A DNA stretch of 32,000 bases from Geobacter sulfurreducens PCA (GCF_000007985.2 NC_002939.5:570001-602000), one strand, 5' to 3'; shown: positions 9,088 through 26,704, counted from the stretch's first letter. The notes: generated by a model not told the origin, from the letters alone. Program-made: numbers and translations.

Positions 9088-11462
9088 TCAGAACCGAAAC
9101 CCTCCGTACCCTCGAATTCGATAAAATACTTTCGGCCGTGTCGGGCTACGCCCACAGCGGCGCCACGCGGGACGAAACCGCCCTGATCCGGCCCCTGGAC
9201 GACCGGGAGGCCATTGTCCGGCGCTTCGGCCAGGTGGACGAGATCCGGCGGCTGCGCCAGCTGGGGATCGATCTTTCCCTCCGCTCCTTCGAGGACATCG
9301 CACCGCTGCTGGCGGCAGTCCGCCCCGACGGCGCGGTGCTGGACCCCACGGAGCTGGTGGTCCTGTTCCCGATCCTGCGGACCATGACCGCCATTGCCAA
9401 GCAGTTCGCCTACCGGACCGACATCCCCCTGCTGCGGGAACTGGCCGGCACCCTGACCGGCTTCCCCGACCTCCTGGACGAGCTGGAGGTATCCATCGAC
9501 TCCGAGGGGGAGATCCTCGATTCCGCCTCGCCGCTCCTCTCGGACCTGCGCCAGAAGAAGCGCCACCTCACCGAGCGGATCAGGCGGCGGCTGGCCGAGA
9601 TCGTCCGCGAGACCGGGGTCACCACCTTCCTCCAGGACGATTTCATCACCCAGCGGGGCGGGCGGTGGGTGATCCCGGTGCGGATGGATTCCAAGGGAAT
9701 GGTCCCCGGCGTGGTGCACGACGTCTCCAATTCAGGCGAGACCGCCTTCATGGAGCCCCTGGAGATCATCGGCCTGGCCAACGAGCTGGAAAACCTGGTG
9801 GCTGAGGAAAAGGCCGAGATGATCCGCATCGTCCGGACCATCTGCCGGATGATCCGCCAGGAAGCCGACGGCCTGGATGAGCAGTTCCGCATTCTGGTCC
9901 GGCTTGACGTGCTGAACGGCATTGCCTTGTTCGCCGATTCCCTCGGCGCCGAGACCCCCGAGATCACCGACGCCCGCTTCATTCGGGTCCGGGAGGGGCG
10001 CCACCCGCTCCTGGCGCTCATGGCGCGGGAACGGGGGGTCGGCCGGGTGGTGCCGCTGGACCTGGGGCTGGGGGGAGCTGAACGTCCTGATTCGCATGTG
10101 GCGAATCAGGTCATGGTCATCACCGGGCCCAACGCGGGAGGCAAAACCATCTCCCTCAAGACCACCGGCCTCCTTCACCTCATGGCCCTGGCGGGGATTC
10201 CGGTGCCGGCGGCCTCCACTTCGTCGTTCCCCCTGATCTCCGACCTCCTGGTGGACATCGGCGACGAGCAGTCCATCGAGCAGAGCCTTTCCACCTTCTC
10301 GGCCCACGTCTCCAACATCGCCGGCATCCTGGAGCGGGCCGACCGCCGCACCGTGGTGCTGCTGGACGAACTGGGCACCGGCACCGAGCCGGTCCAGGGG
10401 GCGGCCATCTCCTGCGCCGTCCTGGCCGACCTGCAGGACAAGGGGGCGCTGGTCATCGCCACCACCCACCTGACCGACATCGTGGGCTTCGTCCACAAAC
10501 GGGACGGCATGGTCAACGCTTCCATGGAGTTCGACCGCCAGACCCTCACCCCCCTCTACCGTCTCACCGTGGGCGAGCCGGGCCAGTCCCACGCCCTGGA
10601 GATCGCTCGCCGGTATGGCCTTCCCGACCGGGTCGTGGCCGTGGCCACCGGCATGCTCTCTCGCATGGAGACTGAATTCCACGAACTGCTGGCCGAGCTC
10701 AAGGACCAGCGCCGGCGCCACGAAGAGGCCCTGGCCGAGGCGGAACGGCTCCGGCGCGATGCCGAGGAGAAGGCCCGCATCGCCCGCGAGCGGCTGGCCG
10801 AGGCCGAGACCCGGCGGCGCGAGGCAACCGAGAAGGCCCTCCAGGAGGCAAAGGAGATCGTCCGGGCCGCCCGGCGCGACGTGAACGCCATCATCGAGGA
10901 AGCCCGCAGGGAGAAGAGCAGGGAGGCCCGGAAGAAGATCGACGAGGCCGAGGCCGCGGTGGAGGCGAAGCTCCAGGAGTTCCACCCCGAGGAGACCCTT
11001 TCCCTGGATGCCGTCCGCGAGGGCGACACTGTCTTCGTCAAGGCCATCGGCCACGACGGCACCGTCACCGCCGTGGACCGCCGGACCGGCCGGCTCCGGG
11101 TGCGGGCCGGCGCCATGGAACTGGAAGTGGCGGCCACGGACGTTTCCCCGCGCCGGGGCAAGGCCACCGAGGCCAAAATCCGCACCGGCTCGGGCAGAAG
11201 ACCGGCGCCGGATGCGGAGACCCCCCGCGAAATCAACCTGATCGGCCTGCGAGTGGACGACGCCCTGGCGCGGTTGGAGCCCTTCCTGAACCACGCCTCC
11301 CTGGAAGGATACGGCGAGCTGCGGATTGTCCACGGCAAGGGGACCGGCGCCCTGATGCGGGCTGTGCGCGAATACCTTGACGGTCACCCCCTGGTGCGCG
11401 AGTTTCGTCCCGGCGAGCCCTTCGAAGGTGGCGAGGGCGCCACGGTGGTGACGCTGCGGTAA
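9084..11462 (+). CDS. mutS2: Endonuclease MutS2 (MutS-family ATPase with C-terminal Smr domain)
   Basis: Starts MIRTETLRTLEFDKILSAV. Walker A is ITGPNAGGKT and Walker B is VVLLDELGTGTEP. A long KRE-rich coiled coil follows. The C-terminal Smr reads INLIGLRVDDAL...LRIVHGKGTGALMRAVREYL. The upstream extension to 8898 in the track overlaps the previous gene and is not used. Confidence 0.93.
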   Translation: MIRTETLRTLEFDKILSAVSGYAHSGATRDETALIRPLDDREAIVRRFGQVDEIRRLRQLGIDLSLRSFEDIAPLLAAVRPDGAVLDPTELVVLFPILRTMTAIAKQFAYRTDIPLLRELAGTLTGFPDLLDELEVSIDSEGEILDSASPLLSDLRQKKRHLTERIRRRLAEIVRETGVTTFLQDDFITQRGGRWVIPVRMDSKGMVPGVVHDVSNSGETAFMEPLEIIGLANELENLVAEEKAEMIRIVRTICRMIRQEADGLDEQFRILVRLDVLNGIALFADSLGAETPEITDARFIRVREGRHPLLALMARERGVGRVVPLDLGLGGAERPDSHVANQVMVITGPNAGGKTISLKTTGLLHLMALAGIPVPAASTSSFPLISDLLVDIGDEQSIEQSLSTFSAHVSNIAGILERADRRTVVLLDELGTGTEPVQGAAISCAVLADLQDKGALVIATTHLTDIVGFVHKRDGMVNASMEFDRQTLTPLYRLTVGEPGQSHALEIARRYGLPDRVVAVATGMLSRMETEFHELLAELKDQRRRHEEALAEAERLRRDAEEKARIARERLAEAETRRREATEKALQEAKEIVRAARRDVNAIIEEARREKSREARKKIDEAEAAVEAKLQEFHPEETLSLDAVREGDTVFVKAIGHDGTVTAVDRRTGRLRVRAGAMELEVAATDVSPRRGKATEAKIRTGSGRRPAPDAETPREINLIGLRVDDALARLEPFLNHASLEGYGELRIVHGKGTGALMRAVREYLDGHPLVREFRPGEPFEGGEGATVVTLR

Positions 11463-11483
11463 GGCGCACCGCGCCCCGTCGAC

Positions 11484-12998
11484 TCACTCGACGCATTCCT
11501 GTTCCTCGAACATGCCGGTGGCACCGATGCTCTCCGCCACCTTTCGGAAGTGAAAGCCGTAGATGGCCAGGGTGATCGCCAGGGGAAAGAGCCGTGGCCG
11601 CCGCGCCAGTGACCAGAAGAAGAGTTTCCAGTAGTAGAGGCGCTCCCTCCCGATCACCCCCAGCAACACCACCGACGCCAGGAACGCCCGCAGTCGGGCC
11701 GGATTCGGCTGGAACCCCCCCGGCGGGGTCCGGTACTCCGTGAGGAAGGTGATGACCCGGCGGTAGTAGTGCCGTGGGGCATAGATGGTGTCGAGAATTT
11801 TCCGGTAACCGCCGACGAGCGCATCCGCCGGCATCCGGGGGACGAAGTTGAGGGCAATGGCGGTATTGTTGCCCGAGGCGTTCCGCAGCAGCCGTCCCTC
11901 CTGTGCAAGACGCCGGTGAAGCCTGGTCCCCCGCAGGGCGGTGAGCATTCCGACCATGGCGGTCACGATGCCGCTCTCCTGGATGAAGCGGATCTGCCGC
12001 TCGAAGATCGTCTCCGGGTCGCTGTCAAAGCCGACGATGAATCCTCCCTGCACCTGGAGTCCCGCCCGCTGGATCCGTTTGACGCTTTCCAGCAGGTCGC
12101 GGTTGCGGTTCTGAACCTTGCCGCTCTCGTGGAGCCCCTCGTCGTGGGGGGTCTCGATGCCCACAAAGACCTCCGTGAACCCCGCCCGCACCATGAGCCC
12201 CATGAGCTCGGGATCGTCGGCCAGGTCGATGGAGGACTCGGTGAAGAAAGAGAAGGGCCGTCTCCGCTGCTCCTGCCAGTCGACCATGGCGGGAAGCACT
12301 TCCCGTTTCAGCTTTGCCCGGTCGCCGATGAAGTTGTCGTCCACGAAGAAAACACCCCCCTGCCAGCCGCGGGCATGGAGGCTGTCCAGTTCCGCCGTCA
12401 ACTGCTCCCGGCCCTTGGTGCGCGGCCTGCGGCCGAAGAGCCGGGTGATGTCGCAAAACTCGCAGTCAAAGGGGCAGCCCCGGGAATACTGGATGTTCAT
12501 GGCCGCGTAATCCCGGATGTCCAGGATATCCCACCGTGGCAGCGGGGTCCGGGTCACGTCGGCCCGTGCCTCGGTAGTATAGATACGCTGGGCGCGGTCC
12601 ATGGCCAGGTCGTCCAGAAACCGCGGGAGGGTGAGCTCGGCCTCGTTGAGCACCAGGTGGTCCGCCTCGGGAAACTCCTCCGGCGCGGTAGTGAAGAGGG
12701 GCCCCCCGGCCACCGTGGTGACCCCCAGTTGCCGGCAGCGACAGAGGATTTCCCGCACCGCATCCCGCTGGATGGTCATGGCGCTCACGAAAATGAGATC
12801 GGCCCGGGCGAGATCGGCATCGGTCACTTCCCGGACATTCTGGTCAATCAGGCGTGCCTGCCAGGTGTCGGGGAAGAGAGCGGCAACGGTAAGGAGCCCC
12901 AGGGGCGGGAAGGCGGCCTTCTTGCCGACGAATTTCAGGGCGTGGCGGAAGCTCCAGAAGGAATCCGGATAGCGGGGGTAGACGAGGAGAACGTTCAT
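11484..12998 (-). CDS. B12-binding-domain radical SAM protein (DUF4070-type C-terminus)
   Basis: Starts MNVLLVYPRYPDSFWSF..., with GGAGGA upstream of the ATG at 12998. The radical-SAM cluster motif is SRGCPFDCEFCD. The N-terminal cobalamin-binding-like fold reads DLIFVSAMT. The track ORF extension to 13382 was rejected. Confidence 0.85.
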   Translation of the reverse strand: MNVLLVYPRYPDSFWSFRHALKFVGKKAAFPPLGLLTVAALFPDTWQARLIDQNVREVTDADLARADLIFVSAMTIQRDAVREILCRCRQLGVTTVAGGPLFTTAPEEFPEADHLVLNEAELTLPRFLDDLAMDRAQRIYTTEARADVTRTPLPRWDILDIRDYAAMNIQYSRGCPFDCEFCDITRLFGRRPRTKGREQLTAELDSLHARGWQGGVFFVDDNFIGDRAKLKREVLPAMVDWQEQRRRPFSFFTESSIDLADDPELMGLMVRAGFTEVFVGIETPHDEGLHESGKVQNRNRDLLESVKRIQRAGLQVQGGFIVGFDSDPETIFERQIRFIQESGIVTAMVGMLTALRGTRLHRRLAQEGRLLRNASGNNTAIALNFVPRMPADALVGGYRKILDTIYAPRHYYRRVITFLTEYRTPPGGFQPNPARLRAFLASVVLLGVIGRERLYYWKLFFWSLARRPRLFPLAITLAIYGFHFRKVAESIGATGMFEEQECVE

Positions 12999-13119
12999 GG
13001 GATCCTCCGTGATCCATGAGTTTCCCGTCGGGTGGGGACGGCTCGATTGGGTAAATTTTACTCCTTCTCCACCGGCGCCCGCGTAATTTTTCTGTAAAAT
13101 GTGTGAACGGAGGTCTCCC

Positions 13120-13800
13120 ATGAACCAAGACCCCACCGGCGAGTACATCCGCACCATCACCAGCCACTGTGACCTGCGGGGCGCAGAGGTCCTCGAAGTG
13201 GGCTGCGGCGCCGGCCGCATCACCCGCGACCTGGCGCGCCACGCCGCCCGGGTTGTGGCCGTTGACCCGGACGAACGCGCCCTGGCACAGGCCCGGGCCG
13301 CCGTCACCGCCGCCAACGTCAGCTTCCTCCCCATGCCCGACGGCGTCCTCAGCTTCCCCCCTGCCTCCTTCGACATCGTCATCTACACCCTTTCCTTCCA
13401 CCATGTTCCCCTCCATCAAATGGACGAAAGCCTCGCCACCGCCGCCGGCCTTGTGCGCCCCGGCGGCGCCGTGGTCGTGGTGGAGCCGGGCGAGGGGGGC
13501 TCCTTCACCGAAGCCAAGGAACGCTTCGGCGCCGGCAGCGGCGACGAACGCCCCGCCCAGGAGGCCGCCATCCGCGCCATGCACGCCCTCCCCGGCTGGA
13601 CCGTGGGGGACACGGTTCACTTCCGGGTCGGCTTCCTCTTCACGGACGAAGACGACTTCATCAGCTCCAAACTCCCCGGCTTTGCCGAACAACCCGCAGC
13701 GTATCAACAGGAGGTGCGGGCTTTCCTCGCTTCGCATCGCACCCCGGAGGGCATCGTCCTCGACGCCGGCCGACGGCTCAATGTGCTGCGGAGGAGGTAA
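13120..13800 (+). CDS. Class I SAM-dependent methyltransferase
   Basis: GGAGG lies upstream of the ATG at 13120. Motif I is VLEVGCGAGRITRDLA, followed by VVAVDPD. The post-I and motif II region reads FDIVIYTLSFHH. Confidence 0.8.
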   Translation: MNQDPTGEYIRTITSHCDLRGAEVLEVGCGAGRITRDLARHAARVVAVDPDERALAQARAAVTAANVSFLPMPDGVLSFPPASFDIVIYTLSFHHVPLHQMDESLATAAGLVRPGGAVVVVEPGEGGSFTEAKERFGAGSGDERPAQEAAIRAMHALPGWTVGDTVHFRVGFLFTDEDDFISSKLPGFAEQPAAYQQEVRAFLASHRTPEGIVLDAGRRLNVLRRR

Positions 13801-13814
13801 GGCGAAAATGTTCT

Positions 13815-13855
13815 GTGTTGTCAATCTTGACAACACGTGGTGCTGTTGTTATTCT
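13815..13855 (+). promoter_or_regulatory. Promoter with an overlapping perfect palindromic operator for the TA pair
   Basis: TTGACA (13827-13832), a 17-nt spacer, then TATTCT (13850-13855), just upstream of the ATG at 13863. A perfect inverted repeat GTGTTGTCAA-tc-TTGACAACAC (13815-13836) overlaps the -35 box. Confidence 0.55.
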
Positions 13856-13862
13856 CTCCAAC

Positions 13863-14144
13863 ATGAATGCAACGCTCTTGCTGAACGGACGTCATATCCT
13901 ATCTGACAATGCGTTTGTTGAGATGGTGGTGTGGCGTGTGCCGTCGCCCCTTTCCGGCAGCGCCCATTCTTTCAAGTACCGCCTGGCCTTTATTGTCGGT
14001 GGCCTGTGCGCGCTGCGTTATGACAATGAGGCTGGCAATGGCGATCACAAACACATTGGCGAAAAAGAACTACCGTATCGTTTCACCACACCACAGGATC
14101 TGCTGGACGATTTCTGGAAAGATGTGGACGAATGGAGGTCCTGA
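13863..14144 (+). CDS. DUF6516/TumE-like toxin-antitoxin system component
   Basis: MNATLLLNGRHILSDNAFVEMVVWRVPSPLSGSAHSFKYRLAFIV...LRYDNEAGNGDHKHIGEKELPYRFT...LLDDFWKDV matches my memory of the DUF6516 pattern (W.vp.p..gs.H.yKYrL ... YDNE.gKGDH.H). There is a 1-nt gap to the next gene. Confidence 0.6.
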   Translation: MNATLLLNGRHILSDNAFVEMVVWRVPSPLSGSAHSFKYRLAFIVGGLCALRYDNEAGNGDHKHIGEKELPYRFTTPQDLLDDFWKDVDEWRS

Positions 14145-14145
14145 T

Positions 14146-14487
14146 ATGCGTACCGTAACACTGGAAATTTCTTCCCGCGAAAAAATTAGTCAAAGATTCT
14201 TGCGGGCATTCGAAGGCAAACCTCAGGGGGATGTCATCAGCTTCGAGTCGCCGGAACTCCTGTTCAGGGTCATTTCGGGCAAACGCTGGGACCTGCTTAA
14301 AATTATGACCGGCGCGGGGCCCATGACGATCCGCGAGGCGGCGCGCCGGATGAAAAGGGATGTGAAGGCGGTCCATACCGATGTGCACGTGCTGCTCAAC
14401 GCCGGGATACTACAGAAAACCGAGGAAGGCCTGATTGTCTTCCCCTTTGATGCGGTGCATGTGGATTTTATGCTGAATGCGGCGTGA
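14146..14487 (+). CDS. HTH DNA-binding protein, putative antitoxin partner (TumA-like)
   Basis: 113 aa. Contains ISFESPELLFRVISGKRWDLLKIMTGAGPMTIREAARRMKRDVKAVHTDVHVLLNAGIL, a winged-HTH-like segment. It is tightly coupled to the upstream small gene. Confidence 0.55.
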   Translation: MRTVTLEISSREKISQRFLRAFEGKPQGDVISFESPELLFRVISGKRWDLLKIMTGAGPMTIREAARRMKRDVKAVHTDVHVLLNAGILQKTEEGLIVFPFDAVHVDFMLNAA

Positions 14488-14512
14488 GTAGTCGAGCACC
14501 GTCGGAGAAATG

Positions 14513-14577
14513 TTCCAATTGGGTGGATCACCGGTTCACGCGCGTGCGCGCGTGAACCGGTCAATGCTGAGTTGGTC
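14513..14577 (+). repeat. attC-like imperfect palindrome (65 bp) ending the TA cassette
   Basis: Layout: TTCCAAT, 10 nt, ACCGGTTCACGCGCG, tg, CGCGCGTGAACCGGT, 9 nt, GTTGGTC. The central 15-bp arms (14530-14544 and 14547-14561) are perfect. The outer boxes pair CCAA with TTGG. The left box has AAT instead of the canonical AAC. The size and layout match the clearer sites listed below. Confidence 0.45.
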
Positions 14578-14619
14578 GAATATATGAGGGAATGCAATAT
14601 TTATTAAGGAGGTAGCAGA

Positions 14620-16158
14620 GTGCCATCACTCGATGATTTCTTGCGTAGGGGATATTTCCCCAAAGAGTTGCTACCACCGTTCACAACGAGTTCGTACGCA
14701 GATGCGTTGAACGGCCTTGGAACTGTGCCCGATTCTAACTTCAAACAAACCAAATGTATCAGATTTTCCCACTCGAAATACGCATCTCTTCGTCGTGATC
14801 TATCAATTCCGAACCCATACCCATTCTACGAGTTGGCCGCCCTGTTATCAGCGCACTGGGGGGAGGTCGAGACACAATGGAATAACTCTCCCTACACACG
14901 TAGTGCCCCTGTTCCATCCATGACCAGGGCGGTAGAAGGAAATACAAATTTCAATGCCCTTCCTAATGCCCGTGCCGAGGTTCGTTCTTCGGGGCGCTTC
15001 CTCCTCAACGCGGACGTATCGAAGTGCTACCACACTATATACACTCACAGCCTACCATGGGCGTTACACACTAAGCCCGTAGCAAAGAACAACCAAAAAT
15101 GGCCTCCCGCTGGAGGAAAACCTCCTTTGGTCGGCAACGGACTTGACCTATGGTCAAGGAACCTGCAAGACGCACAAACTATTGGCCTCCCAGTCGGACC
15201 GGACACCTCCTTTGTACTTGCCGAAGCACTTCTGTCTGCAGTAGATCAACTAGTTGCGTCAAAAATCGCCGGTGCGCGCGGCTTTAGGTTTGTTGATGAC
15301 TACGAGTTCGTATGTGACACACTTGAACAAGCTGAACAGGTTCTATCCGTTCTTCAATGGGCACTCGCAGAGTTCGAGTTGAGTCTCAACCCCAAGAAAA
15401 CAACTATCAAGGAACTTCCAACGGCACTGGATACCACATGGGTAAACGCCTTCTGTGAATTAGAGTTCGCCGCCGAGTCTCCGAAATTACAACGGCAACT
15501 TACTCGGTACTTTACGGATGCCTTCGAATTGACATGCAAGTTCCCAGGTGATCCAGTCCTTAAGTACGCTGCAGCTCGATTGCCGGACAATCCACCCGAT
15601 GATGCGGCGGCAAACTTAATCCAGCGTCTGTCCCTACAGGCGGCTTGCGTAGATTCAGGCACACTTCAACATACATTACGTTCCTTTTGGGATCACCGGT
15701 CCGCTGGTCGAGATCTCGATCTAGTCGCCTTGAAAAGAGCTTTAGATTTTATTGTCCAGAGACATGCCCTTCTAGGTCATAGCAGTGAGGTCGCATGGTG
15801 TATATGGGCAGCCGACGTATTTACTGTCCAGCTTTCCACATCTTCTGCCAACTGCATCGGAAATATGGTTGATGACGTAGTTGCACTGACCGCATTGGAT
15901 GGAATCCAAAAAGGGGCATTTGAAACTCCGCCAAATACAAACAATTGGGAATACATCATCAACAACACAAGCCTGAAAGAAGAACACTGGCTACTATTAT
16001 TCGAGGCCATTGGGCAAGGTTGGCTTCCCCCACCAGTTGGAGGGGATCCAGCACTCGCAGACCCCTTTTTCAATCACCTTCGTACTCAAGATGTCAGATT
16101 CTATGATACTGCTGCAACCCTTGATATCCCTGAACCACCGGGTCCGGACACCTATTGA
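14620..16158 (+). CDS. UG/Abi-type (defence-associated) reverse transcriptase, 512 aa
   Basis: GTG start with AAGGAGG 7 nt upstream. The N-terminal string RRGYFPKELLPPF is typical of Abi/UG reverse transcriptases. RT motifs: LNADVSKCYHTIYTHSLPWAL, GLPVGPDTSFVLAEALL, the catalytic RFVDDYEF (YxDD box reading FVDD), and LSLNPKKTTI. The roughly 220-aa helical C-terminal extension contains Rx4-5H strings (RSFWDH, RHALLGH). The subgroup was not assigned. Confidence 0.8.
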   Translation: MPSLDDFLRRGYFPKELLPPFTTSSYADALNGLGTVPDSNFKQTKCIRFSHSKYASLRRDLSIPNPYPFYELAALLSAHWGEVETQWNNSPYTRSAPVPSMTRAVEGNTNFNALPNARAEVRSSGRFLLNADVSKCYHTIYTHSLPWALHTKPVAKNNQKWPPAGGKPPLVGNGLDLWSRNLQDAQTIGLPVGPDTSFVLAEALLSAVDQLVASKIAGARGFRFVDDYEFVCDTLEQAEQVLSVLQWALAEFELSLNPKKTTIKELPTALDTTWVNAFCELEFAAESPKLQRQLTRYFTDAFELTCKFPGDPVLKYAAARLPDNPPDDAAANLIQRLSLQAACVDSGTLQHTLRSFWDHRSAGRDLDLVALKRALDFIVQRHALLGHSSEVAWCIWAADVFTVQLSTSSANCIGNMVDDVVALTALDGIQKGAFETPPNTNNWEYIINNTSLKEEHWLLLFEAIGQGWLPPPVGGDPALADPFFNHLRTQDVRFYDTAATLDIPEPPGPDTY

Positions 16159-16234
16159 AAAGCCAAACCTCTAGTACTAGAAAAGGCAAGAAAAGGGGCT
16201 ACTTTTCTCCCTGAATCCGTAAATAAACTGAGAG

Positions 16235-17656
16235 GTGTTTTTGTTACCTTCTACTATTACAAGAAATGTCATATTCATCAGCCACGCAACCCCGGAAGAC
16301 AATGATTTCACCATTTGGCTTGCCTCAAGACTGCAAGCCGAGGGGTTTGAGGTTTGGATTGATAAACAGGCTCTCGTTGGTGGCGAAAAGTTCTGGCAGG
16401 AAATTGACCAGGTAATTCGACACAAGGCTGTCAAGTTCCTGCTGGTCTACAGTGAGAACATCTGTTACCAGAAGCAACGCGGTATCCTCAAAAATGGGGT
16501 CGCTAAAGAAATAAGCATGGCGGAGGGCATTGCCACAACAAACGGACTCAAAGATTTCATGATTCTCCTCAACGTCGATGGTTCCGAATACAACCTTTTT
16601 ATCGGAGCGGATACCCTCAACCAGGTTCCTTTCTACGAAAACTGGGCTGGCGGCTATTCCCAGCTGCGGAAGAAGTTCAAAAAGGAAGGGCTAGAGCCGA
16701 CAGGCTCCCCTGTAGGCGATTTTTCCAAGTGGTATGAGGATGAGTATGTCATCCACCATGGCATCGAGAACCTACACGAAATTTATTACGACTGCTGGTG
16801 GCCGATTCCCGAACTCCCCGAATCCTTTTTCGTCTATATCTTCCCGAACAACGTGGTTGCATCACAGGTGCACCAGAGGTCCAAATATCCCACAGGCAAA
16901 GCTTCCAACATCCTCGCTTCCTTTTACGACACATCAGAATTTGAAGTCGAAATAGATGGGCAACTCGAAAGGATCCCCTTTACGGCCAAGCATGAAATCA
17001 AGGTCAGTGATGTCATCGCCAGAACCGTCCGATTGGGTTTCCCCGGCACACGGGATGTCGAAAACTATTTCCGGTCCTTACTGCAGAGAACCTTCCACCT
17101 CATCATGAAAGAGCGTCATCTTCACTGGTATGAAATGGCAAACATGAAGCAGGCGTATTTTTTCTCGGCAAAGAGTCATCCAAAAATCAAATTCGAATAT
17201 CCTCACCGTGCTACCAAGGCAGGAAAGAGCAAGGTCATCTTCGGCAAGCATCTAAGCAGCTTCTGGCATTACGCCCTTTCTGCGAAGCCGATAATTACCC
17301 CGCAGTTGGCTTTCGGCCTCAAGTCCCATATCGTGTTTACCACCGATGGCGTGAAGTTGTGGGACGACAAAGCCAAGATGCACACGGCCAGAAGGCGGAA
17401 GGGGCGTTTGATGTTTAACGAGGAGTGGCGGGACTTGCTCTTTGCGTTCCTGCATGCCCTCTGCCAGGGAGGGACAACGGTGAACATCATGCTGAATCCG
17501 ACCTTTGAACTGGCCCTGAAACCGTGGACCAACACCTATCACTCGGATTTCGGATATATCGAGCCAAAAGGTCAGGACAGGCACGATATCCTGGCGGCGG
17601 AATATGAGTATCAAGACAGGGAAGATATTGACCCCGACGAGGTGGCAAATGTCTGA
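16235..17656 (+). CDS. TIR-APAZ protein (SPARTA effector subunit)
   Basis: The N-terminal TIR reads NVIFISHATPEDNDFTIWLASRLQAEGFEVWIDKQALVGGEKFWQEIDQVIRHKAVKFLLVYSENI. This closely resembles characterised SPARTA TIR-APAZ N-termini as I recall them. A roughly 330-aa APAZ-sized region follows. The start is non-ATG: GTG at 16235, or more likely TTG at 16241, which sits 6 nt after GAGAGG. The 3' end overlaps the pAgo start by 8 nt (ATGTCTGA). Confidence 0.85.
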   Translation: MFLLPSTITRNVIFISHATPEDNDFTIWLASRLQAEGFEVWIDKQALVGGEKFWQEIDQVIRHKAVKFLLVYSENICYQKQRGILKNGVAKEISMAEGIATTNGLKDFMILLNVDGSEYNLFIGADTLNQVPFYENWAGGYSQLRKKFKKEGLEPTGSPVGDFSKWYEDEYVIHHGIENLHEIYYDCWWPIPELPESFFVYIFPNNVVASQVHQRSKYPTGKASNILASFYDTSEFEVEIDGQLERIPFTAKHEIKVSDVIARTVRLGFPGTRDVENYFRSLLQRTFHLIMKERHLHWYEMANMKQAYFFSAKSHPKIKFEYPHRATKAGKSKVIFGKHLSSFWHYALSAKPIITPQLAFGLKSHIVFTTDGVKLWDDKAKMHTARRRKGRLMFNEEWRDLLFAFLHALCQGGTTVNIMLNPTFELALKPWTNTYHSDFGYIEPKGQDRHDILAAEYEYQDREDIDPDEVANV

Positions 17657-18970
17657 CCTTTACCATATCCAGGAACCCAAGCTGACATTCGGTTACGGGC
17701 AGAAACTCCAAGACCCCCGAGACGGTCTCATGCTCTTCGGCCCCTTCACCCGTAACAAGCTCAAGGGGCAGGTGAATATCGGTATCGTCGGCCCGGAACC
17801 ACAACGGGGATATCTGAGGGAGTATCTGAAAAGAATCCACCGACCTGTTACTCCGGAAACTCCCGACAAAGCACGTCCTTCATTCCCCGGCCTGGAAGCC
17901 GCCTTCGACATCTTTATCAACTTTGACAATCTTGCCGAGATTGATGTCAAAAGCTCAGAAGTTGAGAGATGCCTGAGATTCACCGATGGCTATCAACGGG
18001 TTCACAACCTGACGAACTTGTATGCCACCCCCCTTGAAAAATATGGCAACGAGGAAGAGATGCCTGTCACGGTATGGTTCGTTGTCATTCCCGACAGCAT
18101 CTACACGTATGGTCGTCCCAAATCAACTATTCCGAAAGCGACAGACAACATAAGGGCAGGCTTGAAGAAAAAGGACCGTGATTCGGCGCAGTCATTTTTG
18201 TTTGATGACATGAACAAGATGCAGGAAGCTTACAACTTCGAGATTAACTTCCATCATCAATTGAAAGCAAAATTGCTCTCTGCCAAGGTCGTGACCCAGA
18301 TAATCAAAGAGAGTACCATTGCCTACGACCAGATATGGTCAGATGAAGAGAATATCCTATCCGCTAGGAAGTTCGACACTGCGAAGGCATGGAACATAGC
18401 CACAACCCTTTATTACAAGACAGGCGGAATTCCATGGAAGTTGGGGGATGTCCGGGAGAAGGTCTGCTACCTCGGTCTGGTGTACAAAAAGACCGATACC
18501 ACTGAAAGCAATACCAATGCCTGCTGTGCCGCCCAGATGTTCCTCGATAGCGGCGACGGCATGGTATTCCGGGGAAACCTGGGGCCTTGGTATAATCCGA
18601 CAACCAAGGAATTCCATCTCAGGAAGAGCGATGCGAGCGAGTTGCTGAATCAGTCTCTTGTAGCGTTCAAGGAGAAATCCGGTTTCTATCCAGAGCAGAT
18701 ATTCATCCACGCCCGGACGAATTTCAACGATGATGAGTGGGAAGGGTTTACCGGTGCTGCTGAGGGAAAGACTAACGTTGTTGGCGTGAAAATCAGGAGT
18801 GATGGGACATTCAAAATCTACCGAGATCACCCTTACTGCGTTCCCCGTGGTACGGTTCTACAGGTTTCCGATAAGCAGGGCTATTTATGGTCTCGCGGAT
18901 TCGTTCCACGTTTGCAAACCCAGATGGGCCTTGAAGTGCCGAATCCTCTGAGCATAGAAATAACCAAGGG
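17649..18970 (+). pseudogene. Short prokaryotic Argonaute (MID-PIWI), N-terminal 440 codons, interrupted by an IS
   Basis: Starts MSDLYHIQEPKLTFGYGQKLQDPRDGLMLFGPF, a typical short-pAgo N-terminus. A MID-like string is FHHQLKAKLL...VTQIIKEST. The PIWI region includes YYKTGGIPWKL and CYLGLVYKK. After ...LSIEITKG the frame runs into IS sequence and stops at 19010 (MAAPVFLDTKMR* is IS-derived). Confidence 0.85.
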
Positions 18971-19035
18971 TATGGCGGCCCCGGTTTTCTTGGACACGAA
19001 AATGAGGTAAATCTAGGTGTTCAAGGAGGTCGTCA

Positions 19036-19398
19036 ATGGAAAAGGATGTCAGTGTCTCCGGTGCGGCGGAAGGAGAGCGTAGCTCGACTGGAGCAGCACC
19101 GGAAGTCAAACGTTGGAGCGCCAACCGCAAAAAGGAGGTTGTCCTGCGGTTGATGCGCGGTGAACCAATCGATGCCTTGTCCCGTGAGTTGGGCATCGAA
19201 ATCTATCGCCTGGAAGAGTGGCATCAGAAAGCACTCCAGGGGATAGAATCTGCTCTCAAGGCTCGTGAAGGTGATCCGTTGGCAGCGGAACTCGATGCAG
19301 CCTTCAAGCGCATCGGTGAGATCACCATGGAAAACGAGCTACTGCGGGAGAAAGCGAGGCGTGCCCACCCTTTGGCCCAGAGGAGATCGAAGAAATGA
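19036..19398 (+). CDS. IS3-family transposase OrfA (HTH)
   Basis: 120 aa. It has an HTH segment (KRWSANRKKEVVLRLMRGEPIDALSRELGIEIYRLEEW) followed by a leucine-zipper-like coiled coil. GGAGG lies upstream. Confidence 0.8.
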   Translation: MEKDVSVSGAAEGERSSTGAAPEVKRWSANRKKEVVLRLMRGEPIDALSRELGIEIYRLEEWHQKALQGIESALKAREGDPLAAELDAAFKRIGEITMENELLREKARRAHPLAQRRSKK

Positions 19399-20285
19399 GT
19401 GCTACGATCTCCCCTGCCACCGGTAAAGCCTATGGCGTTCAGCGCGTCTGCCTTGCCTGGGGAGTGCCCCGCTCGTCGTTCTATAGCCGTGCAGGCAGAA
19501 AAACATTGCCTGCTGTACTGCTCAAGCGTGGTCCAAAAACACCGCTCTCTGACGACGAGGTACTTTCTCTCATCCGGACCGACCTGGAGACATCCCCCTT
19601 TGTCGGCGAAGGGCACCGTAAGGTCTGGGGACGACTACGCTTCGTCAAAGGGATAAAAGTCGGCCGCAAACGAGTGTTGCGTCTCATGCGGGAGAACAAT
19701 CTGCTCTCCCCTCACCGGGTTGTTCAGGGACAGCCCAAGGACCACGCCGGCAAGATCATCACGGCGGCCCCCAACGTCATGTGGGGTACCGATGGCACCA
19801 AGATCTTCACCCTGGAAGAAGGGTGGTGCTGGTTGTTTACCGCCGTCGAGCATTGGAATGCCGAGTGCGTCGGTTGGCATGTGACCAAGAATGGCGACCG
19901 GTTTGCCGCATTGCAGCCGCTCGCCATGGGAATCAAGGCCCGTTTCGGCTCGGTCGGTGCCGCTGCTGCTCGAGGGTTGGCACTGAGGATGGATCACGGC
20001 AGCCAATACCTCTCAGAGCATTTCCAGAATCAGATCAAGTTCTGGGGAATTGCCCCAAGTTTCTCATTTGTTGCCGAACCGCAGACCAACGGGGTGACGG
20101 AACGGTTTAATCGGACTATCAAAGAGCAGGTCATCTATGGCCGCCATTACCGCACAATCGAAGAAGTAAGGATGGCAGTAGCTGACTTCATGGATCGTTA
20201 CAACCGGCTGTGGCTGGTTGAAAAGCTCGGGTTCAGAAGCCCACGACAGGCTTTCGAGGAGTATCAACTCAAGAAGGCTGCGTGA
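19395..20285 (+). CDS. IS3-family transposase OrfB (rve/DDE integrase core)
   Basis: DDE-type strings are WGTDGT, LRMDHGSQYLS and TNGVTERFNRTIKE. It overlaps the orfA stop by 4 nt (ATGA). Its frame is open back to 19320, which allows an OrfAB fusion, but I saw no canonical A6G slippery site. Confidence 0.85.
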   Translation: MSATISPATGKAYGVQRVCLAWGVPRSSFYSRAGRKTLPAVLLKRGPKTPLSDDEVLSLIRTDLETSPFVGEGHRKVWGRLRFVKGIKVGRKRVLRLMRENNLLSPHRVVQGQPKDHAGKIITAAPNVMWGTDGTKIFTLEEGWCWLFTAVEHWNAECVGWHVTKNGDRFAALQPLAMGIKARFGSVGAAAARGLALRMDHGSQYLSEHFQNQIKFWGIAPSFSFVAEPQTNGVTERFNRTIKEQVIYGRHYRTIEEVRMAVADFMDRYNRLWLVEKLGFRSPRQAFEEYQLKKAA

Positions 20286-20321
20286 CTCTTATCTTGTGTC
20301 CAGGGTACCGGGCGCGCTACA

Positions 20322-20516
20322 GAAATAACCAAGGGGGAAATGGACTTCAAAACCGTCTGTCAGGACATACTGTCACTGACCAAGTTGAATTATAACGCCT
20401 GCATATTTGGCGATGGGTTGCCCGTGACGCTTCGTTTTGCCAATAGCATCGGGGAGGTGCTGACAGCTGGCAAGAATATCAGGGCCGAAGTATTGACCTT
20501 CAAGCATTACATTTGA
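20322..20516 (+). pseudogene. Short pAgo C-terminal fragment (last about 60 codons)
   Basis: Reads EITKGEMDFKTVCQDILSLTKLNYNACIFGDGLPVTLRFANSIGEVLTAGKNIRAEVLTFKHYI*. Removing the IS plus one copy of the repeat joins 18970 to 20336 in frame. That gives 1503 nt, a 500-aa pAgo. Confidence 0.8.
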
Positions 20517-20558
20517 CACTTAACGGGCCACAATAGGACCTATAAAGCACAAAGCGAC

Positions 20559-20623
20559 GCCCAACACGCGGCGGCACACGGACTCCGCTGCGCTCCGCCG
20601 GTGCGCCTTTTGCGCGGTTGGCC
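20559..20623 (+). repeat. attC-like site (65 bp) downstream of the SPARTA cassette
   Basis: Layout: GCCCAAC (RYYYAAC), ACGCG, GCGGCAC, a 23-nt centre, GTGCGCC, TTTTGCGCG, GTTGGCC. The outer boxes are complementary except at one position. The inner boxes pair with one bulged base. It forms a GC-rich patch in AT-rich DNA. Its left arm is nearly identical to the sites at 24118 and 26717. Confidence 0.6.
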
Positions 20624-20640
20624 CACAGAAGGAGAATACG

Positions 20641-20867
20641 ATGGCAGATAACATGAATTACTCATCAGACGCGCCAATATCGAGCCCTGATAAGGATAGA
20701 TTCTCCAGATGGCCTTTTTCCAAACGGATTTCCGAGGTCATCGCTAAAAGGACTGATCCAAGTAGCATCGTGATCGGATTATATGGGGCTTGGGGTGATG
20801 GTAAAACTACAGTTCTGAACTTTATTGAGGAAGCATTAAAAACCGAATCAAATGTAATATGTATTAG
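20641..20867 (+). pseudogene. KAP-family P-loop NTPase, N-terminal fragment (interrupted by an IS)
   Basis: GAAGGAG lies upstream of the ATG. Contains DRFSRWPFSKRISEVI and Walker A GLYGAWGDGKTTVLNFI. The frame then runs into the IS end, so SRLLKLK* is IS-derived. Confidence 0.8.
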
Positions 20868-22186
20868 CAGGCTGTTGAAATTGAAATAGAGAAAACAGCC
20901 TATTTGTGGTACATTGTCGCGCATAACGCTCTACAATTATTGAGGAAAGTTATGCGCGGCTTTGACAGCAACACAGAAGCTCTCTTTACCTATGTGACAC
21001 CTGAATCCTTTGTCCCGAAGGACCACCCCTTGCGGGCCATCCGTAAAATGGCCGACGAAGCCCTGGCAGGGATGGACAAGCTCTTTGACAGCATGTACGC
21101 CACAACCGGCCGCTCCTCAATCCCACCGGAGAAGCTCTTGAAAGCCCAACTGCTGATGATCCTCTACTCCATCCGCAGCAACCGGCAGTTGGTAGAGCAG
21201 ATCCATTACAACTTCCTGTTCCGCTGGTTCCTCGGCATGGGCTTGGACGAGAAAGTCTGGGATCATTCCAGCTTTACCAAGAACAGTGACCGATTGATTG
21301 GCTCCGAAGTTGCCGCCGAGTTTCTTTCCCGGGTTCTGGCCCAGGCAGAGCGTAAGCGACTGTTGTCCCGCGAACACTTCACCGTTGACGGAACTCTCAT
21401 CGAAGCCTGGGCTTCCATCAAGAGCTTCAAGCCCAAGGATGGACCTCCTTCAGCCGGTGGTGGCGGCAGAAACGATACCGTGGATTTCAAGGGACAGAAA
21501 CTTACCAACGAAACCCATGGTTCCACCACTGACCCTGATGCCCGGCTCTACCGCAAGGGGAAGAACAAGGAAGCCAAGCTCTGCTACCAGGGACATACCC
21601 TGATGGAGAATCGTAGTGGCCTCATCATCAGGACCAAGGTGACAACGGCAACCGGTTGCGGTGAGCGCGACGCAGCAAAGGCCATGGTGCAGCAATTGCC
21701 AAGGACGACCCGACGGATCACTCTTGGCTGCGACAAAGGCTACGACACAGAATCATTCGTCAAAGAGCTGCGTAGGCTAAAGATAACGCCACACGTGGCC
21801 CAGAACACCTCCAACAGGAAATCGGCCATCGACGGCAGAACCACCAAGCATCCGAACTACACCATCAGCCAGAAGATCAGGAAACGAATCGAAGAAGGCT
21901 TTGGCTGGATGAAGACCGTGGGCAGCTTACGCAAGACGATGTACCGGGGAATCGAGAAGATCGCCATGCAACTTGATCTGCACGCTGCGGCCTACAACCT
22001 GGTTCGGATGAAAAACCTGGGTCTCGGTGTCACCTGAGAGGGGAAAACCAGGCTACATCAGCAGTATATGAGGTTGATAAAGAGCAAAAAGAACGAGAAA
22101 CAAAGGTTCTGAGCAACAAAACTGATTCAAAAAAAAACGAACTGCAAAGTTCAGCAAGTCAAATGGGGCCGATTTTCAACAGCCTG
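20868..22186 (+). mobile_element. IS5-family insertion sequence (1319 bp) inserted in the KAP NTPase gene
   Basis: Perfect 13-bp terminal inverted repeats: CAGGCTGTTGAAA at 20868-20880 and TTTCAACAGCCTG at 22174-22186. A 4-bp target duplication TTAG lies at 20864-20867 and 22187-22190, matching the YTAR preference known for IS5-group elements. The element has a single transposase ORF. Confidence 0.85.
20952..22037 (+). CDS. IS5-family DDE transposase
   Basis: 361 aa from the ATG at 20952, with GAGGAAAG upstream. The N-terminal DUF772-type region reads FVPKDHPLRAIR...SIPPEKLLKAQLLMILYSIRSNRQLVEQIHYNFLFRWFLG. The C-terminal DDE_Tnp_1-like region reads LGCDKGYD...EEGFGWMK. Confidence 0.85.
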   Translation: MRGFDSNTEALFTYVTPESFVPKDHPLRAIRKMADEALAGMDKLFDSMYATTGRSSIPPEKLLKAQLLMILYSIRSNRQLVEQIHYNFLFRWFLGMGLDEKVWDHSSFTKNSDRLIGSEVAAEFLSRVLAQAERKRLLSREHFTVDGTLIEAWASIKSFKPKDGPPSAGGGGRNDTVDFKGQKLTNETHGSTTDPDARLYRKGKNKEAKLCYQGHTLMENRSGLIIRTKVTTATGCGERDAAKAMVQQLPRTTRRITLGCDKGYDTESFVKELRRLKITPHVAQNTSNRKSAIDGRTTKHPNYTISQKIRKRIEEGFGWMKTVGSLRKTMYRGIEKIAMQLDLHAAAYNLVRMKNLGLGVT

Positions 22187-24159
22187 TTAGGTTTAATCCT
22201 TGGCGATATGGCACTGAGGAACAATTACTGGAAGGATTCTTCCATAACATTGCTGATGCTCTTGACACAAAGCTCATAACTTCAGGAGAAAAAATAAAGG
22301 ACATTTTCAAGAAAGTTGCACCTGCAGCTGCCGGTGCATTTGGTCAACAGGGGATAGGTGATGGGGTAGCTCAATTCATAGCTGGTCCGTCCCTAAGCGA
22401 ACTCAGGTCTAGAATAGAAGCAGCATTGGAAGAAACAAAAAAGAGAGTCGTGATATTAGCCGACGATATCGATCGGTTGGAAAAAGAAGAAATTCACGCA
22501 ACATTTAGACTGGTAAAGCTGACAGCCGACTTTAAATTTACTTCATATATACTTGCATTTGATGAGCAAGTGGTTTCGTCAGCATTACAAGATAGATATG
22601 GCGCAGGGGCTGAGAACGCAGGAAAAGCGTTTCTTGAAAAAATTATTCAGGTGCCACTTAATTTGCCGTCTGTCGATAGGAAGATTTTAAGAGGTTTTTG
22701 TTTTGAAGGTGTCGACAGTGCTCTCACTTTAGCTGAAATCAAGTTAACGGAACAGCAAGTTCAAGAATTTGTAAGAGACTTTACGGCTGCTTTTGACAAA
22801 AGACTAAAAACACCAAGAAAAGCCAGGATGTATGGCAATATTTTGATGTTCTCCTTGCCTATTCTTAAAGGAGAGACAAATCCAGTAGATGTCATGTTGA
22901 TAGAAGGTGTGAGAGTATTTTTTCCTAAAGTTTATGAGGTAATCAAAAAAAATGCGGAGATGTTCACCGGTAGCGTAAGAGATTCGTATGGTAGTAACCG
23001 CGATAAAGAAAAATCGCATACTATAGCCACGATTGAAAAGTCAATAGACTCGTCAGACCCGGAAGAAATTGACGGAATATTAAGCTTATTAAAATCCATG
23101 TTTCCTAAACTTCAAGCAATGTATGGAAACACACACTACGGGAGCGATTGGGAAAAAAGCTGGTCGGAGGCTCAGAGGATATGCTCTCCTGCTTATTTTC
23201 AACGGTATTTCACATATGCGATCCCTGAGGATGATATCCCAGACCAAACCATACAAAACATTATCGACGTTTCATCGAAAGATGATCTCGCTGATACTGC
23301 AAAATTATTCGATCAATTATTGACGACCCAAAATGCAGATAGGCTGATACGAAAACTACGCTCAAGGGCAAAATCTGTTTCGCAAAAATCATCAATGACA
23401 TTGGCGGGAGTTCTTTTGCTGTATTCTGACCGATTCCCTAATCCAGAAAACTTATTTAATTTCAATAATCCATTTGCTCAAGCCGCAATGCTTGTTAGTG
23501 ATCTAATCCAGAATATCTCTGAAAAAGGTGAAAAAATATCTTTATCTCAGCTCTGCATCAAAAATGCACCAGACATTGAATTCTCTGCGGAAATTTTTCG
23601 ATGGTTACGAGTGAAGGATAAAGATAGACCTGAAATAGACGGTTTTACAGAAGATGAAATAAGTGCAATAGGCAATATTTTAGCCGAGCGAATTAAATCA
23701 ATTCTGGAGGGTGATGTAGATATCACTACAGTCTACCCTAAAATATGCGGCCACTTATTGTATCAAGTAAAAAAGTACAACGGCAAATCAGATGTCGAAG
23801 AATATCTTACCAGCTTCTTCAAAACCTGTGAACAATCTATTTTCAGGTTCTTAGACACCTTCACTCCAACGGCCTGGGGGATGGAATCTGGAATCTCACA
23901 TAAGTCAGACCTCGAAAGAGAGCAGTATAATTACATAGTTGGCTTAGTTGACCCTGAGATCATCCTCTCAGCAATAACTCATGAAATAGGTCAACTGCCC
24001 TCCGTTTCGAAAGAATATCCAAGAGACGATAAAGATAGAAACCAATTGCTTGCAAACCAATTTCTTTGGTTGCACGATTATGTCCTTAAAGAGCAGGCGC
24101 GAGCTGCCGAAGAACAAGGCCAACAAGCGGCGGCAGACGGACAAGCCGCTGCGCCTTGA
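22187..24159 (+). pseudogene. KAP-family P-loop NTPase, C-terminal fragment
   Basis: Removing the IS plus one TTAG joins ...NVICI to RFNPWRYGTEEQLLEGFFHNIADAL... in frame. The split codon AG|G uses 20866, 20867 and 22191. That gives 2196 nt, a 731-aa protein. FNPWRY and Walker B VVILADDIDRLE are typical KAP features. The last about 14 codons (EEQGQQAAADGQAAAP) are encoded by the attC-like site. Confidence 0.8.
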
Positions 24160-25480: not shown

Positions 25481-26704
25481 ATGAGCGCATGGGAAAAATT
25501 CAAAAATAAATTCGGCAAGATCAGAACCCACCTCACAAGCTTGGATGATCAGCCATTAGGTAAAGCTGCGCTTGTAATCATTATTTTCCTGGATGTTTTC
25601 ATCCTTGTTTCCATTTTTAACGGACTCGAAGCACACACTAGGCAGCTTTCATCCCCTGACGACTACATCCCTAATGCCTGCCGTGAGATCATAGTCAATC
25701 GCCAATGGAATCCTACTAACCGGATTGACAACATTTCGCAAATCATCATTGCTTCAAGCACAACCTATTACCGGGGCGAGGAAAGGAAACGCGAACAGCA
25801 TCCTGTCTGTGTGCCCTATAGTGATCTTGTTGACCAAATCAAAAGCGATAAGGTGCTTGTCGGCATCTTCGAAGAGCGGAGTAAGGCTGAACGTGAGGCA
25901 CGCGAGCTACAAAGAGAAATTGACAATCTGAAAGGAGCTTACGATACGTCCCTGCTCGAAACCATTGCGAAAAAGCAGGAAAGTCAAACCAAAGTAGCCG
26001 CGATAAAGGAAGATTTTCTAAAGAAGAGTGCTGCCCTTGATACGTTGAAAGCAAAAATTGCATCTTTGGAACAGTCGATTAACGGTGACCCGAAAATAAA
26101 GCTTCTCTGGGAAAAACTGCAAACCTTGCAAGAGCAGGACAGACAAAAACTGCTATCCGACCTGCGAACGATAAATTTCTGGTACCCAGTTAAAAGACTT
26201 GGAATGCAGTTGATGTTCCTGATTCCGCTTTTCATTGCTTTTTACCTCTGGAACAGCACAAGCATAAGGAAAAGCCGGGGAATACAGACTCTCGTATCTT
26301 CGCACCTTCTTGGCGTATCATGTATTCCGATCCTTTTTAAAATCACCGAAGCTGTCTATGACATAATTCCTAAAAAACTGTTGAAGCAACTGATTGATTT
26401 CTTGGAATCATTTAAGCTCATAGCATTATGGCACTACATTGTAATTGCTATCTCGGTGGGTGTTTCACTTCTTTTAATATACATCATTCAGAAAAAGCTT
26501 TTCTCCAGTGAAAGAATCGGCAGAATAATTGAGCGCCGGATTTCCAATGGAGACTGCCAACAATGTGGAAAGCATTTGCCAAGCGGGTCATCAGCTTGTC
26601 CTTTCTGTGGTTTTGGCCAGTATAAGCTATGCAGCCATTGCCAGAAGCAGATGCATGTATATGGCAAATTTTGCCGAGAATGTGGCCAGAAGGCGACTGA
26701 CTGA
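25481..26704 (+). CDS. Hypothetical multi-pass membrane protein with a coiled coil and a C-terminal double zinc ribbon
   Basis: 407 aa. TM1 reads AALVIIIFLDVFILVSIF. A roughly 90-aa coiled coil spans KAEREARELQREIDNLK...LQTLQEQDRQKLL. Three further hydrophobic segments follow. The C-terminus has four CxxC pairs (CQQC...CPFC...CSHC...CREC). I recognise no family. Confidence 0.65.
   Translation: MSAWEKFKNKFGKIRTHLTSLDDQPLGKAALVIIIFLDVFILVSIFNGLEAHTRQLSSPDDYIPNACREIIVNRQWNPTNRIDNISQIIIASSTTYYRGEERKREQHPVCVPYSDLVDQIKSDKVLVGIFEERSKAEREARELQREIDNLKGAYDTSLLETIAKKQESQTKVAAIKEDFLKKSAALDTLKAKIASLEQSINGDPKIKLLWEKLQTLQEQDRQKLLSDLRTINFWYPVKRLGMQLMFLIPLFIAFYLWNSTSIRKSRGIQTLVSSHLLGVSCIPILFKITEAVYDIIPKKLLKQLIDFLESFKLIALWHYIVIAISVGVSLLLIYIIQKKLFSSERIGRIIERRISNGDCQQCGKHLPSGSSACPFCGFGQYKLCSHCQKQMHVYGKFCRECGQKATD

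Follow-up and report, generated by a model that had tools for sequence, protein, structure and literature searches.

Geobacter sulfurreducens PCA carries a reverse transcriptase (RT) gene directly upstream of, and on the same strand as, the two genes of a SPARTA defence system, a TIR-APAZ gene and a short prokaryotic Argonaute (pAgo) gene. The arrangement occupies positions 14620-20516 of the 32,000-nt stretch of DNA analysed here (GCF_000007985.2, NC_002939.5:570001-602000; hereafter the window, to which all coordinates refer), and it raises the question of whether the three genes work as one system or belong to two systems that happen to adjoin. A first-pass annotation, made from the sequence of the window, had entertained both a three-gene unit and two adjacent cassettes, and its description of a 512-aa RT with an FVDD motif, situated 76 nt 5' of SPARTA on the same strand, was reproduced here in every coordinate. 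Our analysis indicates that the RT and SPARTA are very probably separate systems that abut by chance in an island of independently acquired modules, and not a three-gene system. Both belong to well-described families, are found by standard defence-system profiles and are already known; the RT and TIR-APAZ proteins of G. sulfurreducens PCA correspond to AAR33883.1 and AAR33884.1.

The reverse transcriptase and the SPARTA pair

The RT gene (14620-16158, plus strand) is intact, and comparisons with PADLOC, PDB and Pfam predict that its 512-aa product is a class 1 UG/Abi RT of the DRT6 (UG12) family. Translation starts at a GTG codon, with an AAGGAGG ribosome-binding site 7 nt upstream, and ends at a TGA stop (16156-16158). 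The catalytic motif reads GFRFVDDYEF, which places FVDD at residues 224-227 and the two aspartates at D226/D227, and residues 121-264 match Pfam RVT_1 (39.5 bits). The highest-scoring PADLOC profile is Drt6 (PDLC03748), with 503.6 bits (1.7e-151) over residues 2-501. Other matches among the profiles described as 'DRT', a set that we take to follow the UG/Abi classification, are Drt4 (PDLC03752), UG30 and UG14 at 249.6, 172 and 146 bits, respectively, and the AbiK and Abi-P2 profiles of PADLOC match the RT core.

Comparison with the PDB settles the predicted protein as DRT6 (UG12). Entry 9wy8, an RT fused to maltose-binding protein whose six chains form a hexamer, and which is probably the experimentally studied DRT6 of Sphingopyxis sp. 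(PHR10625.1), aligns with RT residues 2-498 (219 bits, phmmer). The YVDD of 9wy8, at native positions 223/224, aligns with the FVDD of the RT and coincides with the D223A/D224A sites of the published DRT6, while the UG15/DRT4 structures in the PDB align to RT residues 7-324 alone (102 bits). Because the 9wy8 match is full-length and carries the residue numbering of DRT6, whereas the UG15 match is confined to the N-terminal part, we assign the RT to DRT6. The alignments with the Drt6 profile and with 9wy8 continue as far as residues 498-501, and the C-terminal part of the RT is, by that homology, expected to form an alpha-helical repeat (alpha-Rep) domain. The first-pass annotation had left the subgroup of the RT unassigned and had considered an uncharacterised DRT, a view overturned by the best profile match and by the end-to-end alignment with 9wy8.

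Two observations qualify this picture. Two other Drt4 profiles reach 450.6 and 440.1 bits, so that the margin of the Drt6 profile is modest and the Drt6/Drt4 boundary in PADLOC is soft. In addition, the priming residue of DRT4, Tyr125, aligns with Thr109 of the RT, and the priming residue of the latter is not assignable by alignment; priming positions vary among class 1 RTs.

Relative to DRT6, the RT is alike in its length class, in its full-length profile and sequence homology, in the position of the YxDD motif (D226/D227 versus D223/D224), in its helical C-terminal domain, in being a stand-alone gene and in its location within a defence island. It differs in being a divergent homologue of the studied protein and in having FVDD where that protein has YVDD, and it is known here from its sequence. 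DRT4 (UG15), AbiK and Abi-P2, which are protein-primed, template-independent DNA polymerases, share with it the class 1 architecture of an RT domain joined to an alpha-Rep domain; DRT4 differs in that the UG15 structures extend over the N-terminal 324 residues of the RT only, and at the Tyr125/Thr109 position. UG12 is the DRT6 system that shields Escherichia coli from phages T5 and ZL-19, a function for which the RT catalytic residues are required (PMC9226505). DRT6 synthesises DNA independently of a template, the product being covalently linked to protein, and acts by abortive infection; its trigger is ORF55 of phage T5, and the system is toxic in an sbcB knockout (PMC12783706). An Rfam scan of 13.5-21 kb of the window for a non-coding RNA or an attC-like element returned just a chance-level match to sroH (E = 0.8), and conservation 5' of the RT gene reaches no further than ~70 nt.

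Downstream of the RT, the TIR-APAZ gene (16235-17656, plus strand) encodes 473 aa, or 471 aa if translation begins at an in-frame TTG at 16241. Its product matches the PADLOC profile Aga_TIR-PNTD1-PNTD2 (464 bits) and Pfam TIR_2, aligns with the TIR-APAZ chains of SPARTA structures in the PDB at 1e-43 to 1e-47, and retains the catalytic glutamate of the TIR domain, with E92 aligned to E77, the residue mutated in Crt/MapSPARTA. The gene for the short pAgo (MID-PIWI) starts at 17649, not at 17604, as shown by the gene call in an allele free of insertion sequences (IS), and thus overlaps the TIR-APAZ stop by 8 nt. In the window, the N-terminal ~440 codons of this gene (17649-18970, plus strand; PADLOC pAgo_I, 553 bits, profile positions 3-436 of 493) are cut off by an IS3-family element of 1350 bp (18971-20320, plus strand; orfA at 19036-19398 and orfB at 19395-20285; Pfam rve, rve_3 and HTH_21). 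The pAgo reading frame is interrupted at 18970/18971, and the open reading frame (ORF) ends 12 codons into the IS. The displaced C-terminal ~60 codons (stop at 20516) follow the IS on the plus strand and, with the ~49 nt that close the SPARTA cassette at its 3' end, occupy 20336-20565, where the IS-free allele is contiguous. A 15-bp direct duplication (AGAAATAACCAAGGG) at 18956-18970 and 20321-20335 flanks the element and is present as a single copy in the IS-free allele. Target duplications of IS3-family elements are usually 3-5 bp, and the duplication seen here is much longer than expected.

The IS-free allele, L003, comes from a public read set (Logan SRR29060600) and is 99.95% identical to window positions 14559-18970. 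By blastn it runs on into 20321-20867 and then into 22187-23699, and so lacks both the IS in the pAgo gene and a second IS further downstream; a 500-aa pAgo and a KAP-family NTPase gene are both intact in it. The intact pAgo matches solved SPARTA pAgo chains end to end (1e-139), and by homology TIR-APAZ and pAgo are a bona fide SPARTA system. Like the solved members of short pAgo clade S2A (MapSPARTA, CrtSPARTA and BabSPARTA), this pair consists of a TIR-APAZ gene followed by an overlapping short pAgo gene and keeps the catalytic glutamate. It differs from them in that the pAgo gene of the window is split by an IS ~60 codons before its end and in that TIR-APAZ is more diverged from the solved proteins (~1e-45) than pAgo is. 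Because the IS3-family element splits the pAgo gene, SPARTA is probably inactive in the PCA genome; in the window, one of the two SPARTA genes is thus broken and the RT gene is whole.

Homologue neighbourhoods and the module junction

If the RT were part of SPARTA, homologues of either would be expected to keep the other as a neighbour. We collected 118 independent RT loci, 82 from genomes or metagenomes and 36 from viral or prophage contigs, 96 of which extend at least 3 kb downstream; 80 of the loci came from species-representative genomes, with RTs of 32-48% identity and flanks of up to 10 kb. These loci were probed by tblastn with the proteins of the window, with 45 members of the TIR-APAZ family and with the full pAgo. 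Neither TIR-APAZ nor a short pAgo was found at any of the 80 species-representative loci, and SPARTA was absent from all 118; a scan of viral contigs for SPARTA likewise found none. A short pAgo of any type occurred at none of the 82 genome loci and at one of the 36 viral loci (L173, considered below). The neighbourhoods instead describe a stand-alone gene: when every ORF lying up to 4 kb from the RT was clustered, the largest family of neighbours was present at 11 of 82 loci. In Desulfatibacillum aliphaticivorans, the RT homologue of 72% identity is a solitary gene; it adjoins a gene for a tyrosine recombinase, and the genes downstream of it are on the opposite strand. At the locus of the 82% homologue (L004), the contig ends 88 bp past the RT stop, and the sequence after the stop is already unrelated to that of the window. 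A shared scaffold was also considered for a 290-aa gene 5' of the L004 RT and a 290-aa gene 5' of the SPARTA homologue of 78% identity (L090); the two genes have no similarity to one another.

The reciprocal comparison gave the same outcome. Eighty-four SPARTA loci (80 metagenomic and four closer homologues), 56 of them with 1.7 kb or more of upstream sequence, were searched by tblastn with 42 RT queries and with a hidden Markov model built from the RT family alignment, and an RT was found near SPARTA at none of them. Six further loci, bringing the total to ~90, encode a TIR-APAZ that clusters with that of the window at 90% protein identity; they lie in other genomic contexts, and the RT is absent from all six. 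In a Desulfuromonadales metagenome-assembled genome (MAG) and a JGI contig, the TIR-APAZ of this cluster follows a tyrosine recombinase and an SNase/Excalibur nuclease and precedes a 1454-aa NACHT-like gene, and in a Geobacteraceae MAG it follows an N6_N4 methylase and a ResIII helicase. The genes 5' of the SPARTA homologues of 88%, 78% and 71% identity are likewise unrelated to the RT, being a 275-aa or 113-aa unknown protein, a Bro-N-like gene in a type I restriction-modification locus, and GroEL. As judged by sequence comparison, the copies of this 90% cluster that stand without the RT in other contexts are the strongest evidence against a link between the RT and SPARTA. A published neighbourhood analysis also found the APAZ protein to be the only gene specifically associated with short pAgos (PMC9097488).

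The SPARTA pair is conserved as a tight cassette (window 16213-20565), with a 5' leader of ~22 nt and a 3' tail of ~49 nt, at loci L210, L211, L212-L214 and L215. DNA identity to the window is 91% for L210 and L215 and 85% for L212, and at least three other contexts are represented. As a compact unit of this kind, the pair appears to be mobile between different islands.

The limits of this cassette and of the RT module can be read from the interval that separates the two genes. From the RT stop (16158), 76 nt lead to the GTG start of TIR-APAZ at 16235, or 82 nt to the in-frame TTG at 16241, on the same strand. At the DNA level, the match to the RT loci L004 and L001 continues up to the RT stop codon and no further. 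Homology to the SPARTA copies of L210 and L215 covers window positions 16213-18970 and 20321-20565 (the end falling at 20565/20567), and the 88% SPARTA copy matches from ~16225. The segment at 16213-16234 (plus strand) is therefore the 5' end of the cassette, a conserved SPARTA leader, defined by blastn to L210/L215 and by alignment to L088/L089, that contains the ribosome-binding site GAGAGG, which is included in the match to the 88% copy. The remaining 54 nt (16159-16212, plus strand) form a junction spacer, with homology ending at both of its sides. Since just this spacer belongs to neither module, the predicted junction of two independently mobile modules falls within the 76-nt gap. Of the two options in the first-pass annotation, the adjacent cassettes are thus borne out, with homology breakpoints in the gap and no conserved synteny in either direction. 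The GC content at third codon positions is 0.46 for the RT, 0.62 for TIR-APAZ and 0.60 for pAgo.

The gap contains the short motifs GCCAAAC (16162-16168), AGAAAAG (16189-16195), CTTTTCT (16202-16208) and GTT (16237), the second and third of which make up an AT-rich 7-bp hairpin within the spacer. The gap folds no better than shuffled sequence (z = -0.70), and the hairpin is accordingly at chance level. No terminator-like or promoter-like site was called in the gap by consensus scans, which are crude, return hit numbers equal to the shuffle expectation, and do not extend to the other sigma factors of Geobacter. This agrees with the earlier statement that the gap holds no convincing terminator. 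At the other end of the cassette, the GC-rich stretch after pAgo (20517-20640) folds with z = 0.28 as DNA and has no conserved downstream palindrome.

The single RT locus with a short pAgo also resolves into separate parts. L173 is a prophage-like contig from IMG/VR in which positions 9944-16898 carry, on one strand, an RT, two unknown ORFs (299 and 198 aa), and SIR2-APAZ with a short pAgo, the pair known as SPARSA. The RT is of Drt4/Drt6 type (704 and 598 bits). We considered L173 as a linked RT-pAgo system and rejected it, as the SPARSA module recurs in L209 (9668-13299) at 95% nucleotide identity with no RT within 10 kb, and the homology between L173 and L209 starts 330 bp 5' of SIR2-APAZ. 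One case among 118 is, on an informal judgement, what clustering in defence islands would produce. In the first-pass annotation, the proposed link was to be given up if the RT fell into a well-characterised single-gene family and its homologues never neighboured pAgo genes. The family is such a one and no homologue neighbours SPARTA; the single homologue with a short pAgo nearby has it in a SPARSA module that is also found without the RT, and the proposed link is accordingly given up.

Explanations for the adjacency

In the reading that we prefer, the island would be a row of modules, each acquired independently: a TumE-type toxin-antitoxin pair, the DRT6 RT, the SPARTA cassette and the KAP NTPase. 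Going by family membership, the RT would work alone as described for DRT6/DRT4. An oligomeric class 1 UG/Abi RT would constitutively make protein-primed, template-independent single-stranded DNA (ssDNA), which a host 3'-5' exonuclease would normally clear; a phage ssDNA-binding protein would shield this product, leading to its accumulation and to abortion of the infection. SPARTA, by the same reasoning, would also work alone, through RNA-guided sensing of invader ssDNA, oligomerisation, and depletion of NAD(P)+ by the TIR domain. Several points weigh against complete independence. The RT and SPARTA share a strand, only 76 nt and no predicted terminator separate them, and their overall GC contents are nearly equal (0.498 versus 0.493); because of these features, joint acquisition or co-expression is possible. 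Moreover, L173 is a second neighbourhood of an RT and a short pAgo, and the 118 loci surveyed would be compatible with a weak recurrent tendency of the two to be located together.

A refinement of the preferred reading holds that the two systems have independent functions and are coupled in transcription only, as a de facto operon in which SPARTA is read through from the RT promoter. We consider this a serious possibility, though one that falls slightly short of an even chance. A mobile cassette with ~22 nt 5' of its start codon brings no conserved promoter along, and the sole promoter-like site nearby (15973-16000; 9 of 12 matches, weak) lies inside the RT gene. With so short a leader on the cassette and no terminator predicted in the gap, where the hairpin is indistinguishable from chance, any SPARTA transcription would probably come from read-through of the RT gene or from the weak site within it, which would be a side effect of the adjacency of the two modules and not the working of a designed operon. 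The limits of the consensus scans tell against this refinement, as promoters for other sigma factors would escape them.

A true three-gene system is far less probable, and we regard it as very unlikely. In such a system the RT would supply an ssDNA or complementary DNA target or activator for SPARTA, or would amplify its signal. In its favour are the short, same-strand gap without a predicted terminator, the activation of SPARTA by ssDNA targets (PMC9097488) and the synthesis of ssDNA by DRT6, and the neighbourhood in L173 of a related RT and a short-pAgo system of SIR2 type. Against these points stand the lack of SPARTA at all 118 RT loci and of the RT at all ~90 SPARTA loci, the occurrence elsewhere of a 91% identical SPARTA cassette without the RT, the homology break inside the gap, and the recurrence of the L173 SPARSA module without an RT. 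DRT6 and SPARTA are, in addition, each active alone in E. coli, and because DRT6 products are template-independent and DRT4 products are of random sequence, sequence-specific pairing with a guide would be rare. The three-gene unit of the first-pass annotation therefore gives way to an RT from a characterised single-gene family, whose homologues at the 118 loci do not adjoin SPARTA. A literature search on the RT and TIR-APAZ accessions, on Geobacter SPARTA and on any link between an RT and SPARTA found nothing relevant.

It is just as improbable that DRT6/DRT4-type RTs and short-pAgo NADases show a genuine, if weak, tendency to co-locate and are functionally synergistic; if they were, ssDNA made by the RT at the time of infection, or a shared dependence on host ssDNA exonucleases, would potentiate the guide-dependent activation of pAgo. 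Least credible of all, to the point of being negligible, is the earlier suggestion of an attC-like layout that would make the RT and SPARTA integron gene cassettes parted by an attC in the gap: GCCAAAC matches the R'' box RYYYAAC at 6 of 7 positions, a GTT stands at 16237, and the SPARTA module has the tight boundaries and short 5' leader of integron cassettes, but GTTTTTG at 16237 mismatches the R' box GTTRRRY at 4 of 7 positions, leaving the core boxes off consensus, the pattern RYYYAAC-N40-130-GTTRRRY occurs nowhere in the window on either strand, no tyrosine recombinase, IntI or other integrase gene was found in the window by Pfam and gene calls, the gap folds no better than its shuffles, and SPARTA homology starts at 16213 instead of at the GTT core, with no conserved palindrome following its end at 20565.

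The island and its other modules

The separate RT and SPARTA modules lie in a low-GC, horizontally acquired defence island at 13.8-26.7 kb of the window, where GC is 0.39-0.55 (~13.8-26.7 kb) compared with 0.64-0.70 in the flanks. The island contains a TumE/HVO_A0114 pair, the RT, SPARTA, the KAP NTPase and two IS elements, with housekeeping genes on both sides. It shares with defence islands in general the row of unrelated modules (a toxin-antitoxin pair, a DRT, SPARTA and a KAP NTPase), the anomalous GC, the IS elements and the housekeeping flanks, and no difference distinguishes it from them. The adjacency of the RT and SPARTA is fixed in G. sulfurreducens, as all 15 contigs with an identical TIR-APAZ represent one chromosomal locus with the common gene order MutS2, radical-SAM protein, methyltransferase, TumE, HVO_A0114, RT, TIR-APAZ and pAgo; the draft contigs among them end at the IS in pAgo.

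At the left edge of the island, directly 5' of the RT, a TumE-like toxin gene (13815/13863-14144, plus strand; Pfam TumE, 58 bits) and an HVO_A0114-type partner (14146-14487, plus strand; Pfam HVO_A0114, 95 bits), both supported by gene calls in L085-L087, are predicted to be a toxin-antitoxin-like pair. GC falls from ~0.65-0.70 to ~0.5 at this pair, which was not present in the RT homologue loci examined. Between the pair and the RT lies a perfect GC-rich palindrome with a 15-bp stem (ACCGGTTCACGCGCG / CGCGCGTGAACCGGT; 14530-14561, no strand assigned), which folds with z = -3.4 and has no U-tract. RT-module homology extends upstream roughly as far as this palindrome; the match to the 82% RT locus (L004) starts at ~14551-14561, and the IS-free contig L003 begins within the palindrome, at 14559. 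It could be a terminator of the toxin-antitoxin pair, a REP-like (repetitive extragenic palindromic) element or a module boundary.

Downstream of SPARTA, the KAP-family P-loop NTPase gene (20641-24159, plus strand; Pfam KAP_NTPase, 174 bits on the intact L003 ORF) is split by the second IS (20868-22186; DUF772 and DDE_Tnp_1), the limits of which are the blastn breakpoints against L003. The inverted ends of this IS, 16 nt long, lie at 20865-80 and 22174-89, and a 4-bp duplication is present. By its GC content (~0.40) and its GC at third codon positions, the NTPase gene stands out as a module of its own. It is bracketed at 20561-20583 and 24120-24142 by a 23-nt direct repeat, which can be extended to ~35 nt (CCAACAnGCGGCGGCAnACGGAC...); the first copy stands exactly at the end of SPARTA-cassette homology, and the second lies within the last codons of the KAP ORF. 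The repeat may be a remnant or an attachment-type repeat left by insertion of the KAP module. An ORF of 407 aa at the island's right end (25481-26704; GC 0.43), in which only a C-terminal double zinc ribbon is recognisable, may be a further defence candidate.

These results add little beyond annotation: DRT6 (UG12) is an appropriate label for AAR33883.1, and the genes next to it can be annotated as SPARTA with an IS-inactivated pAgo. The IS-free L003 allele is usable for cloning a native Geobacter SPARTA. More generally, adjacency of genes on the same strand without an intervening terminator is, within a defence island, not proof of a multi-gene system.

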